From Bdellovibrionales bacterium (GTDB lineage: Bacteria; Bdellovibrionota; Bdellovibrionia; Bdellovibrionales; JAUICD01): a DNA stretch of 64,000 nucleotides. Both the position numbers and the translations under genes were made by a program. This document shows positions 1,469 to 48,071 of the stretch, in pieces. How positions within the stretch are numbered: the stretch's first letter is position 1; every line of letters starts with the position of its first letter. A model generated the notes under the pieces. It was not told where the DNA came from. It worked only from the letters and a program-made list of their open reading frames with translations, and searched no databases. Location: positions 1,792,001 to 1,856,000 of the forward strand of contig OZ241865.1 in assembly GCA_965203275.1 (NCBI GenBank). Reading direction: 5' to 3'.

Positions 1469-2267
1469 TTTCTTTAACATTTCACTCAAAATGAGCCACA
1501 CCGCTGGTGTGTTTTTGGGCATTGCTCTGACAGCTATCGCTGTCCAAAAAGAGCAATGCCTCAAAAATCCGCTCATTTTGAGTAGAGAAGGATCTTTTTA
1601 TTCCTTTACACCATGTTAAGGAAAAATTTCTTTTATTACCTCAAAAGCAAGCAGGTTGCGATAAAGGAACTTTTTCCTTAACATCGTGTTTTTCCGGGAT
1701 CTGGGATCCGGGATCAGGCAACCCGGCATCAGGTCCTAAAACTGAACTTTTTCCTTAACATGTAGTCAAAAAACGAAGAGATCCTCCTCTACTAAAAGTA
1801 AACGGACTTTTGAGGTTGCCAGCATTTAAGAAGGCGAATAGCCTTCGGCTGGCAACCCAAAAGTGACCAGAGGTCAGTTTACTTTTAGTGAAACAGTTCA
1901 GGCAATATTAGATTTGGAATTTGTTGGTTGTATGGAATTAGCAAAACAAGCTGATAAATTAGGAGCTTATTTATACAAGTTGTGTAAAAACACTTAAAGT
2001 CAAAATTGATTTTTTCCGGGATCCGGCATCCGGGATCCCGGCAGACAGGCAAGAATGAAGCGAATATCTTGTTTCCTTAACATGGTGTTAAGAAACGAAG
2101 AGATCCTCCTTACTAAAAGTGGTCAGGCTTTCTAGGTTGCCAGCATTTAAGAAGGCGAATAGCCTTCGGCTGGCAACCAGAAAGTGACCAGAGGTCAGAC
2201 CACTTTTAGTGAAACAGAGATGTGGCTCATTTTGAGTGAAACAGAGGTCAGACCACTTTTAGTGAAA
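1469..2267. repeat. Composite modular repeat locus: 3 H units, J palindromes, GGGATCC arrays, four-helix-bundle gene fragment, terminal stubs
   Basis: H ~1480-1585(+), ~1789-1893(-), ~2110-2214(-); TTTCCTTAACAT motifs at ~1673, 1750, 2072; stubs 2215-2267. Confidence 0.9.
1896..1997 (+). pseudogene. 3' fragment of four-helix-bundle protein gene
   Basis: Encodes ...QAILDLEFVGCMELAKQADKLGAYLYKLCKNT*, near-identical to the C-terminus of 46840-47145, and is followed by the same downstream sequence. Confidence 0.9.
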
Positions 2268-18020: not shown

Positions 18021-18554
18021 ATGAAAAAAAATAATGATATGGAAAAAAACAATGATTATGTGACTAAAACTGACTTAGATAACCTAGAGGCCAAGCTAAG
18101 CAATAAAATAGAAGGCAACAACATTACTCAAATCAAATGGACCATAGGCATACTCATAGCCTTTGCTATTTTGTTTTTCTCAGTTCAAGGTTATATGATT
18201 GATGATATAAAAGAAGATATTGCTGTTCAAAATGCTAGAATTGAGAGCATAGAAACCAGAATTGGAAGCATGGAAAACAGAATTGGAAGCATAGAAAACA
18301 GAATTGAGAATATAGACAACAAAATTGACAGCCTAAGAAATTTATTTATTATTGTTCTAACTAAGAATGGAAAAATAAACCCTGAACTTTTGAAAGATCA
18401 ATTGAAAACTCCTACTGATGCTAAAAAACAAGCTCCCCAAGATGTTGATCAGGTTGAAGGTGATTCTGGTGCTAACGGATTAGTAGTTCCACCGGACGGT
18501 GGAAGTGAAAGCCTTAAGCCAGTGAGAGTTGGACAGGGAACACAAAACCCATAG
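18021..18554 (+). CDS. Membrane-anchored coiled-coil protein with 21-bp heptad repeats
   Basis: GGAGG RBS, one TM segment, IESIETR/IGSMENR/IGSIENR/IENIDNK. Confidence 0.8.
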   Translation: MKKNNDMEKNNDYVTKTDLDNLEAKLSNKIEGNNITQIKWTIGILIAFAILFFSVQGYMIDDIKEDIAVQNARIESIETRIGSMENRIGSIENRIENIDNKIDSLRNLFIIVLTKNGKINPELLKDQLKTPTDAKKQAPQDVDQVEGDSGANGLVVPPDGGSESLKPVRVGQGTQNP

Positions 18555-19755: not shown

Positions 19756-19809
19756 AACTCCCTAACCCCACCCCCCGCCCTCTAATTCTGCTTTTTTATC
19801 TTATTTATG

Positions 19810-20262
19810 TATGAGTGGAATGCGGGTGCAGGCTTCCGAAGTCCTCAACCTTCGCTTGCTTTTGAGGAGCAAGCGGGTCTGCGGAAGATCTCCAGCCTGC
19901 CCCCGCCTCCCACTCATAATACTCATGCTTTTTTGAAAATTACGCAGAATCTAAAAGAGAATAAAAAAAAACAAAAAAGAACTTTTTCCTTAACATTTCA
20001 CTCAAAATGAGCCACACCTCTGGTGTGTTTTTGGGCATTGCTCTGACAGCTATCGCTGTCTAAAAAGAGCAATGCCTCAAAAAACTGCTCATTTTGAGTA
20101 GGGCGAATCTCCTTTCTTCTTGACACCATGTTAAGGAAAAAGTGCTTTTATTGCCTTAAGAGCAAGCGGGTCTGCGGAAGATCTCCAGCCTGCCTCCGCC
20201 TCCCACTCATAATATTTATATTTTTTTTGAAAATTACGCAGAATCTAAAAGAGAATAAAAAA
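19810..20262. repeat. GC-rich long hairpin (19810-19917), J-H-J unit (~19985-20139) and direct repeat of the hairpin 3' half (~20160-20262)
   Basis: ATGAGTGG/CCACTCAT, GCAGGCT/AGCCTGC and CGCTTGCT/AGCAAGCG stems; GAGCAAGCGGGTCTGCGGAAGATCTCCAGCCTGC occurs twice. Confidence 0.85.
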
Positions 20263-21787: not shown

Positions 21788-22286
21788 TTTCACTAAAAGT
21801 GGTCTGACCTCTGGTCACTTTTGGGCAATGACCGCAAAGGCTTTCGCCTTTGACAAAATGGTCATCTGGTTCACTAAAAGTAAACCAGCCTCTGGCTACT
21901 TTTGGGTAGCCAGCCGAAGGCTATTCGCCTTCTTAAATGCTGGCTACCTCAAAAGTCCGTTTACTTTTAGTAGAGAGGATATCCTCATTTTTTAACACGA
22001 TGTTAAGGAAACAAGATATCCATTCCCGGGATCAGGCAATCAGGCATCCCGGGTCCCGGAATCTGATGCCAAGTCCCAGATTAACACAAAGTTCCTTTAT
22101 CGCAACTCGCATGCTCCCTAAAAACATTTTAGAAGCATATCTTGTTTCCCTAACATGGTGTCAGAAGCAAGGAGATCCGCTCTACTCAAAATGAGCAGAT
22201 TTTTGAGGTATTGCTCTTTTTAGACAGCGATAGCTGTCAGAGCAATGCCCAAAAACACACCAGAGGTGTGGCTCATTTTGAGTGAG
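21788..22286. repeat. Composite modular repeat locus (truncated H, H, J, G, J, H)
   Basis: H ~21870-21972(+), ~22182-22285(-); G array ~22025-22080. Confidence 0.9.
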
Positions 22287-27932: not shown

Positions 27933-28137
27933 TTTCACTAAAAGTAAACTGACTTCTGGCCACTTTCTGGCGATGACCACTTTTAGTAGGGAGGATATCT
28001 TCGTTTCTTAACCACATGTTAAGGAAACAAGATGTTCACTCCCGGGATCTGGGATCCGGCAATCAGGCATCCCGGATTCCGGAATCTGATGCCGGGTCCC
28101 AGATCCCAGATCCCGGATTTACACCATGTTAAGGAAA
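27933..28137 (+). repeat. Composite repeat: internally deleted H, J, gene-less inverted GGGATC array, J
   Basis: H deletion joins two GACC microhomologies; GGAAACAAGATGTTCACTCCCGGG is the near reverse complement of the downstream boundary of the four-helix-bundle cassette (~47220-47243). Confidence 0.88.
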
Positions 28138-28285: not shown

Positions 28286-28996
28286 ATGGGGGCAGATATG
28301 GCTAATCAAAACAACAAAAAGAAAAAAGAATCTGATCATACACCTGAAGCAGTGTGGAAGGCACTGAAAGAAGTTATTGCTGTGCAGAAAAATCTAGCTC
28401 AAAAAATAGACGAGACACGTCAAAATATAGACAAGGTGAGTAAAGAGACACGGCAAAGTATAGACAAAGTAAGTAAACAGACACAGCAAAATATAGACAA
28501 AGTGACAAGACAGACAGCAAATAATATTAATAAATTAAGAGGTGATTGGGATCATAGATGGGGTGATTTTGTAGAGATTCTTATTTCTGACAATGTAGAA
28601 AGGCTATTTGAAGATTATGGGATCATCAAAGGCAAGGTAGAAACTGTCAATAAAAGAGTTTATCGCTCTGCGAATGGTATCACTCTGTTTGAGTTTGATT
28701 CTATCACCATCAATGGTGACAAAGTCATTATAACAGAAGCTAAAAGGACAATGACAAAAACAAAAGTAAAAAAATTTATTAAAAAAGTACAAAGTTTTCT
28801 GGCTATCAAAGACAATGAATTTTCCAATAAAAAAGTTTACATTGCTATAGGTTATTTAAAAGCAGACAATGAGAAGCTCCTTATCAAATATGCAGAGAGA
28901 CAGGGATTATTTGTGATTAAGGCAGTTGGTGACAGTGCTAAACTTGTGAATTCACCTCAAACTTTCAAACCCAAGCAAGTGAACTTAAATTTGTAA
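28286..28996 (+). CDS. Coiled-coil protein with C-terminal PD-(D/E)XK nuclease-like domain
   Basis: 11-aa repeats ETRQNIDKVSK; WGDFVE...EFDSITINGDKVIITEAK. Confidence 0.7.
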   Translation: MGADMANQNNKKKKESDHTPEAVWKALKEVIAVQKNLAQKIDETRQNIDKVSKETRQSIDKVSKQTQQNIDKVTRQTANNINKLRGDWDHRWGDFVEILISDNVERLFEDYGIIKGKVETVNKRVYRSANGITLFEFDSITINGDKVIITEAKRTMTKTKVKKFIKKVQSFLAIKDNEFSNKKVYIAIGYLKADNEKLLIKYAERQGLFVIKAVGDSAKLVNSPQTFKPKQVNLNL

Positions 28997-29111: not shown

Positions 29112-29546
29112 TTATACGTTGAGTCCAACTAAAACAAGTTTTACCCAAAAAGTCAATGCAGTCACAGCAAGTGTACTTAAAGCAAATAAGATGATGGTTA
29201 TTCTAATGATCAAAGAATATTTGAGAAGTTCTATTTCTTTCTTTGTATCAGCTTTTAGTTGTTCTATATCTTTCTTTGTATCGGCTCTTAGTTGTTCTAT
29301 ATCTTTCTTTGTATCTCTCCTTAGTTGTTCTATATCTTTCTTTGTATCTCTCCTTAGTTGTTCTATGCTTAAATGCACTTGCTCTATATCTTTCTGAATA
29401 AGCAAGATGTCTTTTTTATCAGCTAGATGTTGAAATCTATTATCTTTTTCTTTGTGTAGGTCAATTAAAACAGTAGCTTGTTGCTCTGTAAAGCCGTTAT
29501 CTTGCAGATGTTGGATTAAGTTAAAATCTATTGTTGGTTGTCTCAT
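29112..29546 (-). CDS. DUF1640/CCDC90-like coiled-coil membrane protein with 33-bp tandem repeats
   Basis: LQDNGFTEQQA head, KKDIEQLRRDT-type repeats x4, C-terminal TM. Confidence 0.75.
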   Translation of the reverse strand: MRQPTIDFNLIQHLQDNGFTEQQATVLIDLHKEKDNRFQHLADKKDILLIQKDIEQVHLSIEQLRRDTKKDIEQLRRDTKKDIEQLRADTKKDIEQLKADTKKEIELLKYSLIIRITIILFALSTLAVTALTFWVKLVLVGLNV

Positions 29547-45200: not shown

Positions 45201-46436
45201 GATAAAACAGGTCGAGAGAGAGAGAGATTTTCTTTAAATTATGGATCTGTTTTGAATGTGAAGGATGGGGATAAACTTAAAAAAGGTCAATTATTAGTAG
45301 AATGGGATCCTTACATCACACCTATTGTAACAGAAGTAGCAGGTCGAGTTAAATATATGGATATTGAGGAAGGTGTTACAATGTCAGATCAGGTGGATCC
45401 TGTGACAGGTTTTTCTACAAAGATGATTATTGGAGGTAAGGAAGCTAAATTAAAACCTACTATTATGATTGTGGATAAAAATGGCAAACAAATTAAGTTA
45501 CCCAATAGAGCTTTAGGAGTTCAATATCGCTTACCTATAGGAGCTCAGCTTTTAGTGACAGATGATGCAGAGGTAATAGCAGGAGATGTGATCGCAAAGA
45601 TTCATAGAGAAACCACAAAAACAAAAGATATTACAGGTGGTTTGCCACGTGTGGCAGAGTTATTTGAAGCCAGAAAGCCTAAGGAAGCAGCTATTGTGGC
45701 AGAAATTGATGGTTATGTGAGTTTTGGTAAAGATTTGAAAGGAAAGCAGAGAGTTGTTATTACACCACATGAAGGAGAAGAGAAAGAATATTTAATTCCT
45801 AAAGGTAAGCATATTGCTGTGCATGAAGGTGAGTTTGTGAAAGCAGGAGAGCCATTGATGGATGGTTCTACAAATCCCCATGATATTTTGGCAGTATTAG
45901 GTAGTAAGCAATTATCTTCTTATATGGTCAATGAGATTCAAGAAGTATATAGATTGCAAGGTGTACCTATTAATGATAAGCATATTGAAGTCATTGTCAG
46001 GCAGATGCTCAAAAAGGTGAGGATTATAGATCCTGGTAGTACTTTGTTCTTAGCAGGGGAGCAAGTAGAAAAAATAGATTTTGATAAAGCTAATGAGAAG
46101 GCTGTAAAAGAGGGTACTCAGGTAGCTACTTGTGAGCCTTTATTATTAGGCATCACAAAGGCAAGTTTAAGTACGGACAGTTGGATTTCAGCAGCTTCTT
46201 TCCAAGAGACAACTAAGATTCTGACAGAGGCAGTGATTTCTGGCTCTAAGGATATATTGAGAGGATTAAAAGAAAATATTATTATGGGCCGGTTGATTCC
46301 AGCTGGGACAGGGCTACCTTGTTATAAGAATTGGAAAATTCAAGTGCGTCGTAGAGTAGAAGAAGAATCTCCTCCAGATACTTTATCTTTTGGTCGTGAA
46401 GGAGGTATAGGAGAATCTATGGGTGCGATGTATTAG
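42288..46436 (+). CDS. rpoC: RNA polymerase beta' subunit
   Basis: [12 protein letters not shown] catalytic motif, zinc-binding cysteines. Confidence 0.99.
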
Positions 46437-46789
46437 ACTTTGTTTCACTCAAAATGAGCCACACCTCTGGTGTGTTTTTGGGCATTGCTCTGACAGCTAT
46501 CGCTGTCCAAAAAGAGCAATGCCTCAAAAATCCGCTCATTTTGAGTAGGGCGGATCTTCTTGCTTCTGACACCATGTTAGGGAAACAAGATATGCATTTA
46601 TTTCACTCAAAATGCATCATGCCTCTGGCATGTTTAGAGTTTGCTTTACAGGTAATATGGTAGCTATAAAAACTATTTGTAAAGAAAGATTGTTGGGTGT
46701 TCTTCTCTGGGATCCGGGATCCGGGATCCGGGATCCGGCAAGCTGGCATCAGGCACTAAAGTATTGGTCGTAATGAATTTTTTCATCTA

Positions 46790-46839
46790 AAAAATTTCCT
46801 CCCAAGCCCTGGCGGGTTTTTAGAAAGGAGGAAATTTTT
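46790..46839 (+). promoter_or_regulatory. RBS-sequestering hairpin
   Basis: AAAAATTTCCTCC pairs with GGAGGAAATTTTT, which contains the Shine-Dalgarno just before ATG 46840. Confidence 0.7.
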
Positions 46840-47145
46840 ATGACGATGAAAAAATTCAAAACTTATCAATTGGCTACTGAGTTTTATCGTAATTCTAAAA
46901 AATTATATCTGAAAGAGCCTCATAGAAGTCAATTTCGAAGGGCTGTTTCAAGTATTGTACTTAACTTAGCTGAAGGATCTGCTAAACCTACAGCGAAAGA
47001 TCGTAGGAAATTTTATTATATTAGCCTTGGCTCTCTAAGAGAGGTTCAAGCAATATTGGATCTAGAAATTATTGGTTGTATGGAATTAGCAAAACAAGCT
47101 GATAAACTAGGTGCTTTTTTATACAAACTATGTAAGAATACTTAA
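46840..47145 (+). CDS. Four-helix-bundle protein (23S rRNA IVP / Avd-like fold family)
   Basis: QFRRAVSSIVLNLAEGS...F..ISLGSLREV signature. Confidence 0.9.
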   Translation: MTMKKFKTYQLATEFYRNSKKLYLKEPHRSQFRRAVSSIVLNLAEGSAKPTAKDRRKFYYISLGSLREVQAILDLEIIGCMELAKQADKLGAFLYKLCKNT

Positions 47146-47693
47146 AGTCAAATTTGACTTTTTCTGGGATCCGGCAACAGGTCCTGGAACCCGGGATGCC
47201 AGATCCCCAGGTCCCGGATCCCGGGAGTGAATATCTTGTTTCCTTAACATGGAGTTAAGGGACGAGAGGATCCTCTTTACTCAAAGTGAACAGGCTTTTG
47301 AGGCAATGACCATTTTGCCAATGGCGAAAGCCATTGCGGTCATTGTCCAAAAGTGACCAGAGGTCAGTTCACTTTGAGTGAAACAACTCCTTAACATGGT
47401 GTTTATCCGGGATCCGGCATCAGAAAGAACTCTTTTTCCTTAACATGGAGTTAAGGGACGAAGGGATCCTCCCTACTAAAAGTGGTCAAGCTTTCTAGGC
47501 AATGACCATTTTGCCAATGGCGAAAGCCATTGCGGTCATTGCCAGAAAGTAGCCAGAGGCTAGACCACTTTTAGTGAAACAGAGGCTGGTTTATTTTTAG
47601 TGAAACAAACGCTAGACCACTTTTAGTGAAACAGAGGTCAGTTCACTTTGAGTGAAACAAACAAACTTAGATAATGAAAGGACCAAACGAAGG

Positions 47694-48071
47694 ATGCCAA
47701 CAGTTAATCAATTAATTAGAAAGCCTAGAGTTATGCCTAAGGCAAGGACAAAGTCACCTGCGTTAGCTAGATGTCCTCAAAAGAGAGGTGTATGTACTCG
47801 TGTTTATACACAAACACCTAAAAAGCCTAATTCTGCTTTGAGAAAAGTGGCCAGAGTGAGGCTTTCAAATGGCCATGAGGTGACAGCCTATATCCCTGGA
47901 ATAGGTCATAATTTACAAGAGCATAGTGTGGTCTTGATTCGAGGTGGTCGTGTTAAAGATATTCCAGGTGTTAGATATCATATTGTGCGTGGAATTTTAG
48001 ATACACAGGGTGTACAAAATCGACACCATGCTCGGTCTAAGTATGGTAGCAAAAAACCCAAAAAATCCTAA
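47694..48071 (+). CDS. rpsL: 30S ribosomal protein S12
   Basis: MPTVNQL...[11 protein letters not shown]...GGRVKD; true start 47694. Confidence 0.98.

Follow-up and report, generated by a model that had tools for sequence, protein, structure and literature searches.

Between rpoC and rpsL, the genome analysed here carries a gene for a small four-helix-bundle protein set among several kinds of repeat, which raises the question of whether gene and repeats move together and how they would be copied. The locus lies in the window (the whole 64-kb stretch of DNA that was analysed), within a genome, G000, that consists of one 2.57-Mb contig and is 90% complete by markers. The initial annotation took gene and repeats for one propagating unit with gene-less derivatives. 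The arrangement is confirmed, as is the mobility of the cassette, but that proposal merges two elements, and the cassette is a variant of the IVS type. The locus very probably combines two stacked elements, one a gene cassette with heptamer arms and the other a separate, more abundant H/J/D repeat that has invaded it at hot spots. This anatomy and the copying route set out below together form an explanation that is held, as a whole, with moderate confidence.

Layout and origin of the rpoC–rpsL insertion

rpoC ends at 46436 and the ATG of rpsL lies at 47697. The upstream part of the locus holds an inverted H unit (46442..46584, minus strand), detected by nhmmer with the H model and made up of a D dyad, a three-armed hairpin and a J end, the last 5 nt past the rpoC stop. 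A truncated J head from a second inverted H follows (46601..46637, minus strand; recognized by sequence), and then unique sequence (46638..46704) that by blastn matches only itself in the genome and is possibly a remnant of the native rpoC–rpsL spacer. The cassette begins with a left arm of GGGATCC-type heptamer words ending in GGCATCAG (46705..46752, plus strand, as are all further parts; TRF period 7, 4.3 copies), and continues with a pre-leader octamer and palindromic 'mirror' leader, delimited by fold z and covariation (46753..46839). Next come the four-helix-bundle gene (46840..47145; 101 aa, pI 9.9), assigned to TIGR02436/PF05635 by profile scores and predicted fold, and a short palindromic tail evident from sequence, which overlaps the stop codon (47143..47161) and is kept in 9/9 intact copies. 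In the right arm (47164..47227), forward heptamers are followed by inverted ones able to pair with the left arm, enclosing the gene (fold of 46700-47235, z -6.3). Downstream lie H unit 1 (47240..47384; H profile, fold z -9.3), a gene-less G-D module recognized by sequence and composed of a D half-site, a mini heptamer array and a linker (47386..47435), H unit 2 (47436..47580; H profile, fold z -9.8), and three stacked 26-nt J heads, which are H 3' ends (47581..47658; TRF period 26). The gene, heptamer arrays, H units and J heads of the initial annotation were all recovered, and nothing like a transposase, RT or recombinase lies inside the cassette, as it had also held; the 88-nt palindromic leader between left array and ATG was absent from that description. 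Rfam searches over 46300-47800 returned sub-threshold matches only. The segment containing the rpsL ribosome-binding site (47660-47696) has 83-88% matches at other repeat-derived loci; a repeat may therefore now supply the rpsL leader.

Fourteen relatives were examined, four of them without rpoC–rpsL adjacency; in the remaining 10/10 the spacer is empty, measuring 2-163 nt (lengths that count the ATG of rpsL) and holding neither the gene nor H. In the congener G001 it measures 35 nt, against 1,260 in G000. Since the site is empty in these relatives, the cassette, consisting of left arm, palindromic leader, gene, tail and right arm, is shown by genome comparison to be an insertion into the rpoC–rpsL spacer. 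Among contigs compared from sequencing runs, none spans this spacer.

Related structures recur in the window. A second cassette (1696..2047, plus strand) comprises a left arm, pre-leader octamer, H unit, 3' gene fragment, tail and right array; its H unit (1751-1894) replaces the leader and codons 1-68, and the reported 3' gene fragment with its downstream flank is indeed present, spanning 1896-2016 from codon 69 onwards with tail and array kept. The two arrays reported as gene-less (28023-28137 and 22007-22080) likewise proved to be forward plus inverted heptamer pairs on the minus strand with the same boundary into D; one is flanked by D sites (28027..28114) and the other is partly decayed and joined to D-H (22011..22080). 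Recurrence at about nine loci had been claimed: this is correct for the window, with about nine clusters, but falls short of the genome-wide scale, which is 421 clusters. A further structured repeat with a G-rich block (K-type) is nested among H units at 19780-19900 and 20160-20215, with related copies in G001 and G004. Repeat family D19 (4181, 11183, 18934 and 63615) corresponds to the ends of a resident IS1634-like element, and its copies are probably MITEs or remnant ends.

Gene copies, heptamer arms and the mirror leader

The window gene scores 58.4 bits against TIGR02436 (cut-off 24) and 54.8 against PF05635 (cut-off 33.8), and its second Met codon (46846) is the start position common to its relatives. 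The predicted structure has four helices (pLDDT 91), with Xcc0516 (2GSC) and BT0352 (2RLD) as best Foldseek matches (TM up to 0.83); Avd was not among the fold-search matches listed. Judged from its homologues, the protein would form an Avd/Xcc0516-like pentamer. To our knowledge, PF05635 is a large family with no function known outside DGRs.

Searches with tblastn and blastn found nine intact gene copies and 37 pieces in G000, three short matches among the 49 blastn pieces being treated as spurious, and the gene cassette occupies about 40 places in this genome. The intact copies are 91-98% identical at the nucleotide level, with a pS of 0.25 and a dN/dS of 0.06, and changes private to single intact copies comprise 19 synonymous vs 8 non-synonymous. 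Fragments have acquired 3 synonymous vs 10 non-synonymous new changes, a near-neutral count that excludes alleles already present in intact copies. Purifying selection on the intact copies is thereby shown. Mosaicism among copies was considered and rejected, and gene conversion is not shown: the four-gamete test fails for 235 of 325 site pairs, matching the 234 +/- 8 given by a null of independent columns, so recurrent transitions along a star-like tree are enough. Nor do the failures clearly fall off with distance (adjacent-site p 0.2). A/G and C/T account for 12 and 11, respectively, of the 26 differences among gene copies. Excess depth speaks against an assembly artefact as the source of the copies. 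In contigs of runs X1, X3 and X7, which come from three studies (one maybe the source sample) and in which depth is a rough measure, the gene lies well above single-copy flanks and H hundreds of times above them.

The gene subfamily is patchy, occurring in 57/201 genomes of the order, with relatives' gene loci located by a single-protein scan. There are 35 gene matches in G001 and 24 in G004, but none in G002 or in G003, a congener of G004. The G004 genome is 1.6 Mb in size and rated 99% complete. Five G004 loci (L030:1040-1100, L032, L033, L098 and L099) carry an in-frame insert of ~60 nt following the AEGSAK motif of the gene, with identical sequence at different loci, which is possibly another small element targeting the four-helix gene. 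Cassettes lie next to tRNA genes at 11 of 22 loci (L014, L023, L096, L148, L149, L155, L157, L159, L162, L163 and L165), a rate biased by a sample chosen partly on suspicion.

Heptamer arrays of at least three words number 375 in G000, against 0 in a shuffle; we know of no explanation for bacterial heptamer repeats. Paralogs of the window gene are associated with such arrays elsewhere in the genome: a heptamer word stands immediately before 22/22 leaders, and an array lies behind 28/31 gene pieces with a 3' end by a strict pattern and behind the remaining three by eye. The 421 clusters comprise 211 with H only, 155 with array and H, 38 with gene, array and H, 13 with array only, three with gene and H, and one with the gene alone. 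Their orientation relative to flanking genes is unbiased (59/52/50/49 of 210), and a transcription-linked orientation was accordingly rejected. A pre-leader octamer joined to D terminates 38 gene-less arrays, and gene-less arrays are shown often to keep the left boundary of the cassette. Arms in G000 are mostly direct repeats; an inverted arm occurs in 3/9 intact copies, including that of the window, and could close a long stem around the gene in all three. A canonical form occurs at L011:1110-1900 (G016), where the heptamer arms enclosing a four-helix gene are long and perfect inverted partners of each other; an HNH-like gene lies upstream of this cassette.

The leader mirrors the start of its own gene. 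Positions 46774-46786 are the reverse complement of nt 7-19 of the ORF, and 46790-46802 pair with the RBS arm (46827-46839), so that the 88-nt hairpin covers the RBS and pairs with the start region (fold z -6.5 on the plus and -7.0 on the minus strand). The hairpin would thus hide RBS and start codon, keeping translation low. The leader arm matches an A/C variant at codon 4 in 9/9 intact and 2/3 truncated copies. Across 31 leaders from G000, G001 and G004, it tracks the ORF in 31/35 deviations, a figure obtained after 5/36 leaders matching at fewer than 11 of 15 positions had been removed and reflecting few independent events that are common to kin. In nine genomes (G021, G025, G026, G031, G035, G095, G113, G159 and G186), a palindrome of this kind lies between two different four-helix genes arranged head to head, with arms of 29-69 nt in 7/8 loci measured; at one locus (L006) the arms span the first 36 coding bases of both genes, which are otherwise unlike. 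In the single-gene form, the leader appears to be what is left of such a head-to-head pair.

The H repeat and its relationship to the cassette

A model built from 358 copies in G000 and searched with nhmmer gives 1,369 H matches there (776 near full length), amounting to 6.2% of the genome. The unit is a 146-nt three-armed fold (fold z about -9), found in 3/41 genomes (G000, G001 and G004), all of family f1. A fixed-end/ragged-end pattern, of the retro or rolling-circle kind, was not supported, D and J ends being about equally common. GC skew in G000 stays close to zero and flips sign from one 100-kb block to the next, a pattern to be expected of a genome scrambled by recombination among repeats.

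H is found at 15/15 left and 23/24 right gene breaks in G000. D follows 15/15 left pieces, and right pieces are preceded by a J end in 21/24 cases and by other H sequence in two more. The breaks cluster at core positions 69/70 (9), 289/291 (5), 101 (2), 295/297 (12) and 341 (7). Where both flanks of an H insertion are left, 5, 30 or 49 nt are missing and there is no target duplication. With H at nearly all gene breaks, the repeat behaves as an invader of the cassette: it is very probably a separate repeat that entered the cassette at fixed hot spots, and this invasion would account for the fragments and for many gene-less arrays. In G001, H occurs at the same codon 63-67 break at three loci, which may stem from an old chimera common to them or from targeting of this site more than once.

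The principal alternative is that gene, heptamers and H/J/D spread together as one unit, or that H machinery carries the upstream array and gene. A co-oriented D lies 52-106 nt past the last codon in 9/9 intact copies, D is directly downstream of 203/302 merged arrays, H downstream of arrays is co-oriented in 206 cases vs 39 opposed, and array–D junction types recur. This association and its strong polarity suggest that H could be the carrier in G000 and may now carry arrays and genes there. Tandem H copies in G004 also fit: at L100 (G004:C11) three copies lie just 5' of the start of an rplN-like gene within an operon for ribosomal proteins, and the second repeats about 45 nt of the upstream flank. 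Yet H stands without arrays or gene in 211/421 clusters, its insertion destroys the gene, and in G001 its copies next to the gene point in mixed directions. H is present within 300 nt of 6/11 near-full cassettes in G001, but of 0/17 in G004, where the cassette has nevertheless multiplied, and a broader survey covering relatives of the gene found it at 0/61 loci, some of them counted twice. A single unit is therefore an unlikely reading. The part of the initial proposal that stands is the gene with its heptamer arms as a propagating cassette with gene-less derivatives; an obligatory H/J component is not supported.

Slightly less likely still, the four-helix protein could be a trans-acting helper of both elements that licenses H copying too, which would explain why H stays near the cassette and targets it. 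The three f1 genomes with H are those with 24-35 gene matches, G002 and G003 having neither, and G000 and G004 have neither RT nor RAYT. These three genomes are related rather than independent, however, many gene copies occur with no H match in G021, G025 and others, H has no heptamers, and G001 has RT and Y1 transposase genes of its own (one Y1 match being strong).

Possible copying routes and related systems

Profile searches with RVT_1, Y1_Tnp, IS110 and Y2_Tnp (the last run without a positive control) gave no match in G000 or G004. An HUH/YxDD motif scan of G000 ORFs found nothing relevant. PF00589 had no match in G004 or G003, so that no XerC/D-type recombinase was found in G004, at 99% completeness, and likewise in G003. 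G000 carries IS256, IS1634 and serine-resolvase genes, and these elements were rejected as H mobilizers, their ends being unlike D/J; its two PF00589 tyrosine recombinases (307 and 187 aa) were set aside solely for unlike ends. One IS256 is inserted within an H copy. The serine-resolvase element is itself multicopy in G000 (~16 tblastn pieces; G000:C1:1034771, 1901966, 2152817 and others), with a dyad upstream, and often follows ankyrin-repeat genes.

The cassette multiplied in G004 with no match to five searched enzyme families, so its own protein likely helps copying, and the cassette is likely a selfish element aided in this way. The enzyme families not found, the unrelated IS ends and the unbiased orientation, together with a leader that folds equally on both strands, favour a DNA route involving the protein and host enzymes. 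In this route, which is proposed tentatively and at somewhat below even confidence, folded single-stranded DNA would be the form in which the cassette is copied. Its basic protein (pI 9.9) would assemble into an Avd/Xcc0516-like pentamer gripping the heptamer arms, with strand transfer left to repair or recombination enzymes of the host; every step of this route, arm binding and a role in movement included, is a prediction. Fragments and empty arms would arise by recombination between H copies or direct heptamer arrays. A broader version is speculative and improbable as it stands: PF05635 proteins would be self-encoded mobility factors of transposase-free selfish DNA, their pentamers recognizing their own arms and recruiting host repair, with the palindromic two-gene unit ancestral in the order and H parasitizing the same machinery.

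Selection on copies as old as these (pS 0.25) also fits a benefit to the host. The genes might be domesticated nucleic-acid-binding host regulators, scattered passively by rearrangement among 1,300 repeats, and selection even on private changes agrees with this, as does the flat GC skew, as in a rearranged genome. Such a role is improbable given the patchy distribution (57/201 genomes; none in G003, 24 in its congener), the empty orthologous site, the many neutral fragments and a leader predicted to shut translation. Least probable is a retroelement, a DGR- or IVS-like RNA that RNase III would excise and an RT acting in trans would reverse-transcribe, which would suit the kinship to Avd, the long stem enclosing the window gene and the RNase III gene present in 5/5 f1 genomes (making RNA-level cassette processing possible), but is opposed by the lack of an RVT_1 match in G000, G004 and G021, all with many gene copies, by the unbiased orientation to flanking genes and by the absence of copies from the 23S gene.

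Several known systems share parts of this architecture. One is the S23p IVS of Coxiella, described in the accessible part of its account as a selfish element with heptamers upstream of the ORF, a stem enclosing it and apparently suppressed translation (PMC4990558). As far as that account extends, the G000 cassettes share with it the protein family and upstream heptamers (22/22); a long ORF-enclosing stem is predicted for the window copy, and an inverted arm is present in 3/9 intact copies. They differ in being intergenic and numerous (9 intact plus 37 pieces) with none in the 23S gene, a search of the 23S region (23S motifs near 973-976 kb of G000) having returned no gene matches. Again within the portion of the Coxiella account available, the IVS decays whereas the G000 copies are under purifying selection, and the G000 arrays are mostly direct, carry a mirror leader and are invaded by H. 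Avd is pentameric and binds an RNA stem-loop through its five protomers (10.1101/2023.10.23.563531), and PF05635 proteins are treated as its homologues (PMC10053308), in the passages of both sources that were accessible. The G000 protein resembles Avd, to the extent these passages describe it, in its homologous fold family and basic character; unlike in DGRs, there is no RVT_1 match in G000 and no DGR context was seen. PF05635 genes are also present in cas loci (PMC3936711) and spread over CPR rRNA insertion sites (10.1101/2024.02.27.582315), according to the available sections of these reports.

GGGNATC heptamer repeats of Xanthomonas and Nostoc are intergenic and often form convergent inverted pairs, and the accessible portion of the report gives no link to mobile elements and no mention of a four-helix gene (PMC4692102). 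Their word type, as given there, is near-identical to that of the G000 arrays, which are likewise intergenic but trace to a gene cassette. H recalls REP/REPIN and RAYT systems, which the available text presents as non-coding, high-copy, extragenic hairpin repeats (PMC3337134), and MITEs, in sharing these features, as far as that text describes them, and in forming nested composites. It departs from REPINs in its 146-nt three-armed fold and the lack of a Y1 transposase match in G000 or G004, and from MITEs in the lack of target duplication in gene insertions and in ends that differ from those of resident IS256 and IS1634. Integron cassettes provide a further parallel, D being a dyad with a 5-nt centre and modules being stacked between D half-sites; no protein was identified as an integron integrase, G000 has two PF00589 proteins, and G004 has H with no PF00589 match.

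In the main texts of the openly accessible literature, no paper was found that describes multicopy four-helix cassettes lying between genes, leaders of the mirror type or divergent gene pairs. What this case adds is a cassette multiplied within one genome under selection, a mirror leader together with head-to-head pairs, invasion of hot spots by H, and G004 as a small relative without matches to the searched enzyme families. There are thus direct signs in this lineage that a gene-plus-heptamer cassette spreads within a genome with its protein under selection. G004 holds some two dozen copies and gave no match to the five enzyme families searched, which limits where to look for the mechanism that moves IVS-type elements, and the mirror leader and head-to-head pairs offer a concrete regulatory and structural test.

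Small coiled-coil repeat proteins are encoded in the window at 18021-18554, 28286-28996 and 29112-29546. In G000, expanded families include coiled-coil repeat proteins (67 in the largest) and ankyrin proteins (73); such expansions are typical of host-associated bacteria. A strain near G000 is present in a run labelled sponge metagenome.
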